From: Candidatus Borrarchaeum weybense
Lineage (GTDB): Archaea > Asgardarchaeota > Sifarchaeia > Borrarchaeales > Borrarchaeaceae
Direction: 5' to 3'
NCBI GenBank assembly: GCA_019057385.1
Contig: JAHQJS010000004.1
Span: 288,001 to 352,000 of the forward strand
Length of the DNA: 64,000 nt
A program made the translations under genes and the position numbers. Numbering within the stretch: position 1 is the first letter of the stretch; the number at the start of each line of letters is the position of its first letter. Under the pieces are notes generated by a model. The model saw only the letters and a program-made list of their open reading frames with translations. It was not told where the DNA came from and searched no databases. Below are positions 51,310 through 52,585 of this stretch, piece by piece.

Positions 51310-51475
51310 GATTTCAGCTGCGACAGAAAGCGCGACATCGTTTTCGTGGGTATGACATTTTTCGTCCCTTGCGAGTCATCCGTCCCCTTCGATGAGGCGT
51401 CGGACCTCTCAGGTTCAGTCTCATGCACAAGAACGTGTCCCTCATGTTTTATGAGGAACATACCGCCTTGCAACT
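51310..51475 (-). ncRNA. putative guide RNA 1: structured scaffold (51346-~51475) plus 3' guide matching ftsY (51310-51345)
   Basis: Scaffold repeated at 52452-~52585; TATA box TTTATATAGG at 51496-51505; guide is 28/36 identical to 50791-50826. Confidence 0.75.
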
Positions 51476-51541
51476 CATATATTCGCTTACAAAGACCTAT
51501 ATAAACACCACTCTTCATAACAAGGACTCCCAGTTCCATAC

Positions 51542-52354
51542 TTACATGTCCTCTTTCAGGTCATCAAGATAAAGGTTGACCATTAATAAGAGATGGTTTT
51601 TCAAAGAAGAAAAACCATAGGTTAGTGCTTCGTTGATTTTATCAAGGTCATTGCATTTTCGAATAAAGGTATAAAGTGCAAAAGGAGAGTATTGGCGCAG
51701 TTCTATCTCTCTTTTTAACGCGTTGAAATCTATCTCTTCTGATTCTGCTACATGATAACGTGAAAATGCAGTCCATCTAAATTTTCGAGAAATCATTGCA
51801 GACCATCTATCATAATTTTGTAGTAAAGAAAGCAGAGGAAAGTCTTTTTCATCTATAGTATAATTATGATGGTTCTTTGCGAGCTGATAGACTTCGTCAT
51901 TAATTATATCAACATCAGTATAAATTTTGCTTGGATGTCGATCAGTGCTTACAAAATCATGCAGGAGCATTGCTATAATTAACTTTTCCTGCACATCTGA
52001 GAGTTTTGGAAGTTTCTTACGTATGTTAATCTTTCTCGAAATATAGAGGGGTTTTTTCTTGAATTCACTCACAGAAGTCCAAAAGATTTGTCCCACCCCC
52101 TCACATGTATAACTCCCGACACTATCAATAGCTAGTGCTTTTTCAAGTTTATGTTCTGGAACGATGAACTCAACATTACCAAACCATGCCCTAAAGGTCA
52201 TTGGAGCACGTCTTTGTCCTACCGTTAATTTTCCGAATACCCTGGGACGACCATTTATAGTCATCGCACCAACATCGGTAACTCCAAAATGTCTACGCCT
52301 TGAAACGATAGGAGTTTTTGTATAACCAATCAATTTAAAGTATTTTTGTGACAT
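51542..52354 (-). CDS. reduced Cas5-like RAMP fused to HD domain
   Basis: N-terminal strand + TP, Gly-rich VGSYTCEGVGQI loop; then LLHD, HH and D residues of an HD hydrolase. Confidence 0.65.
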   Translation of the reverse strand: MSQKYFKLIGYTKTPIVSRRRHFGVTDVGAMTINGRPRVFGKLTVGQRRAPMTFRAWFGNVEFIVPEHKLEKALAIDSVGSYTCEGVGQIFWTSVSEFKKKPLYISRKINIRKKLPKLSDVQEKLIIAMLLHDFVSTDRHPSKIYTDVDIINDEVYQLAKNHHNYTIDEKDFPLLSLLQNYDRWSAMISRKFRWTAFSRYHVAESEEIDFNALKREIELRQYSPFALYTFIRKCNDLDKINEALTYGFSSLKNHLLLMVNLYLDDLKEDM

Positions 52355-52417
52355 TTATTCCCCTCATTTGAGGTTTTACCTCCTCTTTAAACAAAAGAGA
52401 GGAGATATAAACCTTGC

Positions 52418-52585
52418 CAAAGTAAACACGTTTGCAACTGTTGTTTGTAAAGTGGGTATGACATTTATCGTCCCTTGCGAGTCATCCATCCCCAATAATC
52501 GAGGCGTCGGACCTCTAAGTTGGTTCAGTCTCATGCACAAGAACGTATCACTCACATCAGTAGGTGATAGACCGTTATGAGATGA
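52418..52585 (-). ncRNA. putative guide RNA 2: second scaffold copy with a different 3' variable segment (~52418-52451)
   Basis: ~100 nt near-identical to 51346-51444; similarity ends sharply after ...GTCATACCCAC. Confidence 0.7.

Follow-up and report, generated by a model that had tools for sequence, protein, structure and literature searches.

We found that the array-less ARAMP cassettes of an Asgard archaeon are accompanied by a real, conserved family of structured RNAs, and we judge it probable, without any transcript or binding data, that this ~120-nt RNA is the scaffold of the ARAMP guide RNA. The RNA occupies two fixed places in the cassette. At the internal place it is followed by a sequence that matches the promoter region of the cassette's own RAMP gene, with mismatches concentrated at every sixth base; at the terminal place it coincides with the precise right-hand boundary of an inserted unit and is followed, as a rule, by host DNA.

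Scaffold copies in the window and in related genomes

All positions are those of the window, i.e. the whole 64-kb stretch of DNA that was analysed, which belongs to a genome of 4.18 Mb (G000). The nearest named records, Candidatus Borrarchaeum yapensis and a Promethearchaeota MAG, identify the host as an Asgard archaeon. On the minus strand, two copies of a ~120-nt element bracket the gene of a 270-aa protein (p270), as the first-pass annotation had proposed, and both were recovered by covariance model R1: copy 1 (class B, terminal) at 51352-51470, with 122.7 bits, and copy 2 (class A, internal, in the interval between the RAMP gene and p270) at 52458-52579, with 118.3 bits. The strings quoted there as common to the two copies were also present. 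The hexamer ACCCAC follows directly 3' of each scaffold (51346-51351 for copy 1 and 52452-52457 for copy 2); in copy 1 it comprises the last element-derived bases, which are guide positions 1-6, and the family consensus of the hexamer is roughly A-H-H-C-A-Y. No third scaffold was found 5' of the RAMP gene using model R1 with filters off, and the model gave no match on C5:80-82k of G000.

The search against Rfam 15 assigned no family to 51346-52585, and thus to either copy, in gathering or in E-value mode. The sole Rfam match of the window in threshold mode was a HEARO RNA (IscB-type omega-RNA family, RF02033; 131 bits) at 31852-32094 on the plus strand. Also on the plus strand, a tRNA-like match that stayed below threshold (27.1 vs 29 bits) and a weak match to the 'tmRNA' clan were obtained at 44411-44490 and 45935-46037, which may be intron-containing or atypical tRNA genes.

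The G000 genome contained 23-26 scaffold copies and five other genomes of the same Asgard class contained 3-33 copies each, an abundance far beyond chance. According to model R1, the family was present in 6 out of 6 sampled genomes of the class and in 0 out of 145 other Asgard genomes. The position of the scaffold was fixed across ~10 paralogous cassettes and in the sister genomes, namely in the gap between RAMP and p270 and directly 3' of p270, with the internal scaffold absent from some cassettes (C6:564, L091). We also observed a tandem pair of class B scaffolds in G000 (C4:903454-904074, L022), where a GIY-YIG-like ORF of 96 aa begins 6 nt 3' of the first scaffold; this tandem layout was kept in G004:C118 and G003:C269.

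Fold of the scaffold

We aligned 34 copies from five genomes and counted the pairs on an explicit structure. Overall, 92.9% of the cells were paired, versus 41-50% when the partners were slid, and 15 pairs changed on both sides. Covariation of the 5' hairpin (P1), which had been noticed between the two copies of the window, was confirmed and extended, as 8 out of its 10 pairs changed on both sides across the 34 copies. The GAGGU/GCCUC hairpin was paired in 98.8% of the cells, and a fourth helix (CCAAC/UUGG vs CCAUC/GAUGG) showed three compensatory pairs. Two other helices of the first-pass annotation were not retained: the ATGAC/GTCAT helix had its central pair broken in 16 out of the 34 copies without compensatory change, and the CTC-GCAA-GGG mini-hairpin was paired in only 46% of the cells and was not conserved. 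In place of these, CGUUCUU found its partner in RRGGACG, forming a long-range helix that was 97% paired. In copy 1, the helices correspond to 51460-51451/51445-51436 (P1), 51435-51429/51369-51363 (P2) and 51408-51404/51398-51394 (P3), followed by a short P4, all on the minus strand.

Pairs of the U-G type were frequent, and on the opposite strand they would become C-A mismatches, so the structure is strand-specific. The covarying fold, the strand-specific G-U pairs and the fixed positions in the cassette together support the original proposal of a structured non-coding scaffold that replaces CRISPR repeats.

Gene content of the cassette

The gene order on the minus strand was helicase-Cas1, RAMP, scaffold, p270 and scaffold, with ftsY downstream. 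The first gene (53765-57775) encodes a Hel308/Ski2-type helicase fused to Cas1 (1336 aa), with matches to DEAD, Helicase_C and Cas_Cas1 in Pfam and to Hel308 and cas1 in NCBIfam; its Cas1 part spans residues ~958-1294 (PF01867, E 1e-7, and TIGR00287). The RAMP gene (52609-53418) is Cas7-like, according to a Pfam match above the curated cut-off (PF03787, E 4e-6) and weak matches to TIGR03986 and Cas7-11. The genome harbours about ten paralogous cassettes, and their helicase-Cas1 proteins are 33-89% identical.

The p270 gene (51542-52354) gave no match in sequence search, Pfam, NCBIfam or PDB, and Foldseek against the PDB returned nothing at E <= 0.001; the usable matches came from VIA-align only. 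The AlphaFold (AF2) model of p270 (pLDDT 82) has two domains. Residues 1-100 resembled the Cas5-type RAMPs of Cascade and type IV complexes (Z 5.8-5.9), and residues 119-270 the HD domain of Cas10/Csm1 (6ifk_A, Z 8.7, 140 residues aligned). The invariant residues were H132, D133, H140, H162, H163, D182 and H254. On the basis of these model comparisons (Z 5.8-8.7), the designation of p270 as a Cas5/HD protein, with an N-terminal Cas5-like RAMP domain and a C-terminal Cas10-type HD domain, appears supported at moderate strength. No recognisable Cas6 was found beside the RAMP genes, in line with the initial description.

No CRISPR array was detected in the 64-kb window. Only two CRISPR-like arrays were present in G000, at C4:148434-152114 and C3:30575-30852 (at least 49 and 5 repeats, respectively); both are distant from every ARAMP cassette, and the scaffold shows no relation to the repeats of either.

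The cassette corresponds to the published ARAMP: its host is an Asgard archaeon, no array lies beside it, and it encodes a Cas7-like RAMP, a protein that is Cas5-like and also has a nuclease domain, and a distinct Cas1, which is joined here to a Hel308-type helicase. In the summaries given by PMC8730458 and PMC12669027, ARAMP (Makarova et al. 2020, CRISPR J) is an array-less, type III-derived system of 'enigmatic' mechanism for which no RNA is named.

The internal copy and the RAMP promoter

Class A copies sit between RAMP and p270, and the sequence downstream of them is conserved within cassette lineages. The 40-48 nt that start at the first base after the scaffold matched, without gaps, a region ~90 to 42 nt 5' of the start of the RAMP gene of the same cassette. 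The corresponding sequence of the window, called guide A (positions 1-48, counted from the scaffold end), lies at 52410-52457 on the minus strand, and its target at 53468-53507, also on the minus strand and directly 5' of the TATA box of the RAMP gene (53460-53453). The ungapped match (52457-52410 vs 53507-53468) had mismatches at positions 1, 6, 12, 18, 24, 28 and 36, and in the window lineage a 1-nt indel stops the ungapped pairing at position 40. The DNA of guide A also holds the BRE/TATA of p270 (TATA box TTTATATC, 52411-52404, minus strand); the class A DNA doubles in this way as the p270 promoter.

Taking seven cassettes together, positions 6, 12, 18, 24, 30 and 36 were mismatched in 30 out of 42 cases, compared to 15 out of 231 elsewhere (Fisher p 2e-19), and the register of this period starts at the first base after the scaffold. 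The seven cassettes are related, so that about three independent lineages stand behind the statistic; for single lineages the p value was 2e-4 in the window cassette (Fisher), 8.5e-7 in C4:524 and 0.012 in C4:422. The same every-sixth-base pattern was present in a G004 cassette of the C4:905 group. Guides and targets diverged strongly between lineages, yet they matched within each cassette.

In complexes with a Cas7 backbone (types I and III), every sixth base of the guide is flipped out and remains unpaired. Because of this, mismatches at every sixth base are the expected trace of selection for pairing on a Cas7 backbone, and the tail of the internal copy constitutes direct evidence, at the level of sequence, for predicted guide pairing of the Cas7 type with the cassette's own RAMP promoter. 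The earlier claim of a 3' guide is supported for this copy, to which alone the periodicity evidence applies. A 12-nt exact match of the copy 2 tail to ftsY was rejected as chance; the same tail was found in the C3 cassette and a 91%-identical one in C5, at other loci.

The terminal copy and the insertion junctions

Class B copies sit 3' of p270, with a conserved TATA-type block upstream and a sequence unique to each locus downstream. The TATA box attributed to copy 1 by the first-pass annotation was located as TTTATATA at 51505-51498 on the minus strand, ~28 nt 5' of the modelled scaffold, and the upstream block was kept in related copies (W, C3, C5 and C4_423). A hairpin with a T-run followed 45-60 nt after the scaffold in the class B copies examined. 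In the window, the hairpin GAGATGATC ... GATCATCTC and a subsequent T-rich stretch (51272-51300, minus strand) are the candidate 3' end of the scaffold-B transcript, and analogous hairpins come after other class B tails.

The homology between close paralogs extended from 0-73 nt 5' of the helicase-Cas1 start to the exact end of the terminal scaffold, which is accordingly the exact right end of a repeated, inserted unit of ~6.4 kb. At 4 out of 5 insertion sites that lack the insert in sister genomes, native host DNA restarts 5-6 nt after this scaffold. The DNA inserted into ftsY relative to the sister genomes spans 51346-61293 (minus strand) and comprises a TPR gene and the ARAMP unit, the conserved part of which runs from ~57850 to 51346. 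The gene is intact, i.e. the site is empty, in G004, G002 and G001. The displaced native ftsY leader and codons 1-38 (ATG at 61407) were found at 61294-61808 on the minus strand, 94.4% identical to G004. The 36-nt tail B, ENDVALSVAAEI (51310-51345, minus strand), represents guide positions 7-42 and codons 39-50 of ftsY in their genus-typical form; it was identical to sister ftsY at 29-30 out of 36 positions, in sisters it is contiguous with codon 38, and it is the native DNA immediately right of the insertion point. A 'written' homing spacer borne by the element, also considered for copy 1, was weakened, as the 36 nt are ordinary ftsY codons at that site in the sisters.

Comparable junctions were observed at other loci. 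The 32 nt after the scaffold at a 96-aa gene on C3 were identical at 31 out of 32 positions to the G004 sequence immediately right of the insertion point; at the pyrD locus 36 out of 38 positions matched after the hexamer AAACAT; and at C6:564366 native DNA restarts 5 nt after the scaffold and simply runs on. The C5 locus was the exception, since the 48 nt after its scaffold are not native; there, it is the tail of an additional internal scaffold that corresponds to the native flank on the right. This C5 cassette (G000 C5:119447-119839, L019) contains three scaffolds; in it the extra internal scaffold and its flank-matching tail are separated from the next scaffold by a hairpin and a promoter, an arrangement like an array of two guide genes. 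We saw no target-site duplication or terminal inverted repeats at the five junction pairs, and no common motif at the left insertion ends.

Some additional features were recorded around the insertions. The TPR-repeat gene (58229-60469, plus strand; 746 aa) lies inside the ftsY insertion, divergent from helicase-Cas1, and TPR-like repeats also occur 5' of the cassettes at G000 C4:747855 and C4:910317, so the gene may be common cargo. The left flank of the C3 cassette has an insertion of ~313 bp in G000 vs G004 (C3:99122-99434), and a ~1.5-kb repeat (G000 C4:1000000-1001533; L095 1-1533) adjoins the C4:1002-1004k cassette. The latter repeat occurs in four to six copies per sister genome, 77-84% identical, and is probably an insertion sequence.

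Class B tails thus consist, as a rule, of host DNA reached by reading outward past the element end, as in TnpB reRNA, and internal and terminal copies are functionally different classes. Host-DNA origin alone does not prove guide function, which for the terminal tail is only inferred. When every sixth base was ignored, a genome-wide search for targets of class B tails found no near-perfect target, and the best matches were the local downstream copies; the every-sixth-base pattern was not seen in orthologous class B tails, where the substitutions follow codon thirds. The layout of scaffold plus 3' guide that had been assigned to both copies was thus supported for the internal one, and for the terminal one stands only as an inference.

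Segment Z and possible rescue of the interrupted genes

At four loci (ftsY, the 96-aa gene, pyrD and a methyltransferase-like gene at C4:1004418) the native stretch ends after 32-56 nt and is followed by a segment, here called Z. This segment contains a hairpin and a new leader or start codon, and it restores the frame through a divergent version of the gene's 5' part. In the window, segment Z and the replacement ftsY 5' end occupy 50791-51309 on the minus strand, with the hairpin, the new leader, diverged codons 1-38 and a diverged target copy S, QNDVAFSVAAEI (50826-50791, minus strand). Compared to the sisters, the nucleotide identity of the working ftsY 5' end was 63-65% over codons 1-38, ~80% over codons 39-50 and 91% from codon 51. 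The tail was closer to the sisters' intact allele than to the working copy alongside at all four Z loci: it matched 31/32 vs 26/32 at the 96-aa gene and 47/56 vs 31/42 at C4:1004418, and at pyrD the first 13 bases of the match are missing from the working copy. The Z sequences were unique in the genome.

These features leave room for the tentative idea that ARAMP is an RNA-guided selfish element, whose terminal scaffold would make a guide against the wild-type allele of the insertion site and whose segment Z would rescue the interrupted gene. It is conceivable, though we would not expect it, that such an element is a homing or 'cleave-and-rescue' drive of natural origin, assembled from helicase-Cas1 and from Cas7/Cas5-HD parts of type III descent; the interrupted genes, which are often essential, might then be kept working by a segment Z mismatched to the guide, a point that we regard as equally doubtful. 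The regularity of segment Z fits homing or cleave-and-rescue, yet other histories are possible.

Solo copies, downstream genes and alternative explanations

Scaffolds outnumbered intact cassettes in G004, G001 and G005. In G004 we found 21 scaffold copies vs 4 intact p270 genes, and in G005, an assembly that is 80% complete, 33 copies and only broken p270 fragments; many copies were solo or adjoined broken p270 genes. Mobile elements may carry structures at their ends that act at the DNA level, such as those of IS200/IS605 elements or Helitrons. The occurrence of solo copies and relics, the coincidence of the scaffold with the exact right boundary of a repeated, inserted unit, and left ends that vary as in one-ended transposition would all suit a terminal or subterminal structure of this kind, e.g. 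ssDNA hairpins recognised by helicase-Cas1, instead of a functional RNA. We consider it unlikely, because the internal copy holds a fixed place inside the cassette, the many G-U pairs would be G-T wobbles in DNA and C-A on the opposite strand, class B copies come with a TATA box of their own and, further downstream, a hairpin with T-run, and the every-sixth-base mismatches of guide A remain unexplained at the DNA level.

In several cases the start codon of an intact gene in the same orientation lies only 3-7 nt past the scaffold copy; the genes are a GIY-YIG-like ORF, a 158-aa ORF and an ACAD-like gene (G004, G001), and the tails before intact genes vary at third codon positions, not at every sixth base. 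Such copies, and an internal copy directly before the p270 promoter, could suggest a cis-acting 5' leader (a riboregulator or promoter cassette) for the downstream gene, without guide function in trans. We give this even less credence, since at ftsY, the 96-aa gene, pyrD and C4:423875 the scaffold is followed by a gene fragment of 17-38 nt and a hairpin with T-run, not by a gene, and the periodic mismatches point to pairing in trans with the RAMP promoter.

Least plausible of all is a decaying MITE-like relic without present function, in which tail A would match the RAMP promoter merely because a promoter was duplicated: the upstream regions of p270 and RAMP do remain similar past position 48, as duplicated promoters, and the excess of scaffolds over intact cassettes in the three genomes agrees with it, but a duplicated promoter leaves the every-sixth-base differences unexplained while positions off this register stay ~94% identical, and compensatory changes maintain the pairing of P1 and P4.

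Proposed mechanism

Our preferred reading remains that of a guide-RNA scaffold. The effector would consist of Cas7-like RAMP subunits and the Cas5-like/HD protein p270, and its guide RNA would derive from single genes, not from a repeat array. The scaffold would stand in for the 5' handle of a crRNA, and the ~40-48 nt 3' of it would be held on the Cas7 backbone, pairing with the target in steps of 5+1 nt. The tail of the internal copy suggests that a class A RNA in complex with RAMP and p270 sits on the promoter of the RAMP gene in its own cassette, which would most likely lead to auto-repression of the effector genes; transcription, binding by RAMP and p270, and repression are all inferred here. 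The terminal copy is predicted to be transcribed from its own TATA promoter outward into the adjoining DNA. Since it stands at the exact right end of the unit, the 3' part of its RNA would be insertion-site sequence, and any activity of this tail is likewise an inference.

Comparison with known systems

An ARAMP-associated scaffold RNA was not found in print in the literature searched, which did not include the original text of Makarova et al. 2020, and no RNA was named there for ARAMP. The current CRISPR classification treats ARAMP and the haloarchaeal HRAMP as array-less derivatives with no known guide and a mechanism called "enigmatic". The present cassettes differ from ARAMP as described in having a conserved structured RNA with a guide-like 3' tail at two fixed places. 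A distant ARAMP-like locus of another Asgard family (G028:C12) contains a 66-nt direct repeat (L012 244-309 and 2401-2466) that brackets RAMP-like and p270-like genes. The repeat, of which this genome has 3 copies, may represent an analogous RNA. Model R1 gave no match on the distant ARAMP-like loci of G028.

The crRNAs of class 1 systems (types I, III and IV) share with guide A the pairing in 5-nt segments with every sixth base unconstrained (30/42 vs 15/231), the Cas7-like and Cas5-like genes alongside and the guide 3' of the handle. However, the cassette lacks a repeat array, an 8-nt handle derived from a repeat and any recognisable Cas6; the handle is here a multi-helix scaffold of ~120 nt encoded by single genes, which have a promoter of their own or sit at a fixed intergenic position.

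The first-pass annotation had compared the layout to omega RNAs, and this comparison stands in part. A large structured scaffold with a 3' guide is indeed found, as in TnpB reRNA, and for class B only, the scaffold and the end of a mobile unit overlap and the guide portion is flanking DNA. It fails for the partner proteins, which are class 1 RAMPs and a helicase-Cas1, not a RuvC nuclease, TnpB, IscB or IsrB, and no Rfam family matches the scaffold, to which the HEARO RNA of the window is unrelated.

Among the cas-regulating cr-like RNAs are stand-alone repeat-like elements (PMC10120712) and the long tracrRNA of Cas9 and CreA, both cited in PMC8730458. As with guide A, their guide is only partly complementary to a promoter in the same locus, which implies that they autoregulate by binding and do not cleave. 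Those RNAs come from degenerate CRISPR repeats in array-bearing systems, unlike the scaffold, and here the DNA of the guide itself doubles as the p270 promoter. Finally, as in the homing guides of CAST elements, a guide-like sequence at the element end equals the chromosomal site beside the insertion. No Tn7-like genes (TnsB/TnsC/TniQ) were found among the eight neighbouring proteins scanned with Pfam; the insertion lies at the 5' edge of the matching sequence, not ~50 nt beyond it, and at four loci the matching sequence is native flank and not an element-borne spacer.

Significance

The design is testable, as it consists of two small proteins and one RNA, with the RAMP promoter as a built-in natural target, and the clean insertion junctions open to test the question of whether the unit is mobilised by Cas1-helicase. 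If the proposal is true, a dedicated structured RNA with Cas7-type pairing would make ARAMP RNA-guided after all, and ARAMP would be the first class 1-type effector with a stand-alone, promoter-driven scaffold-plus-guide RNA instead of a repeat-derived crRNA.
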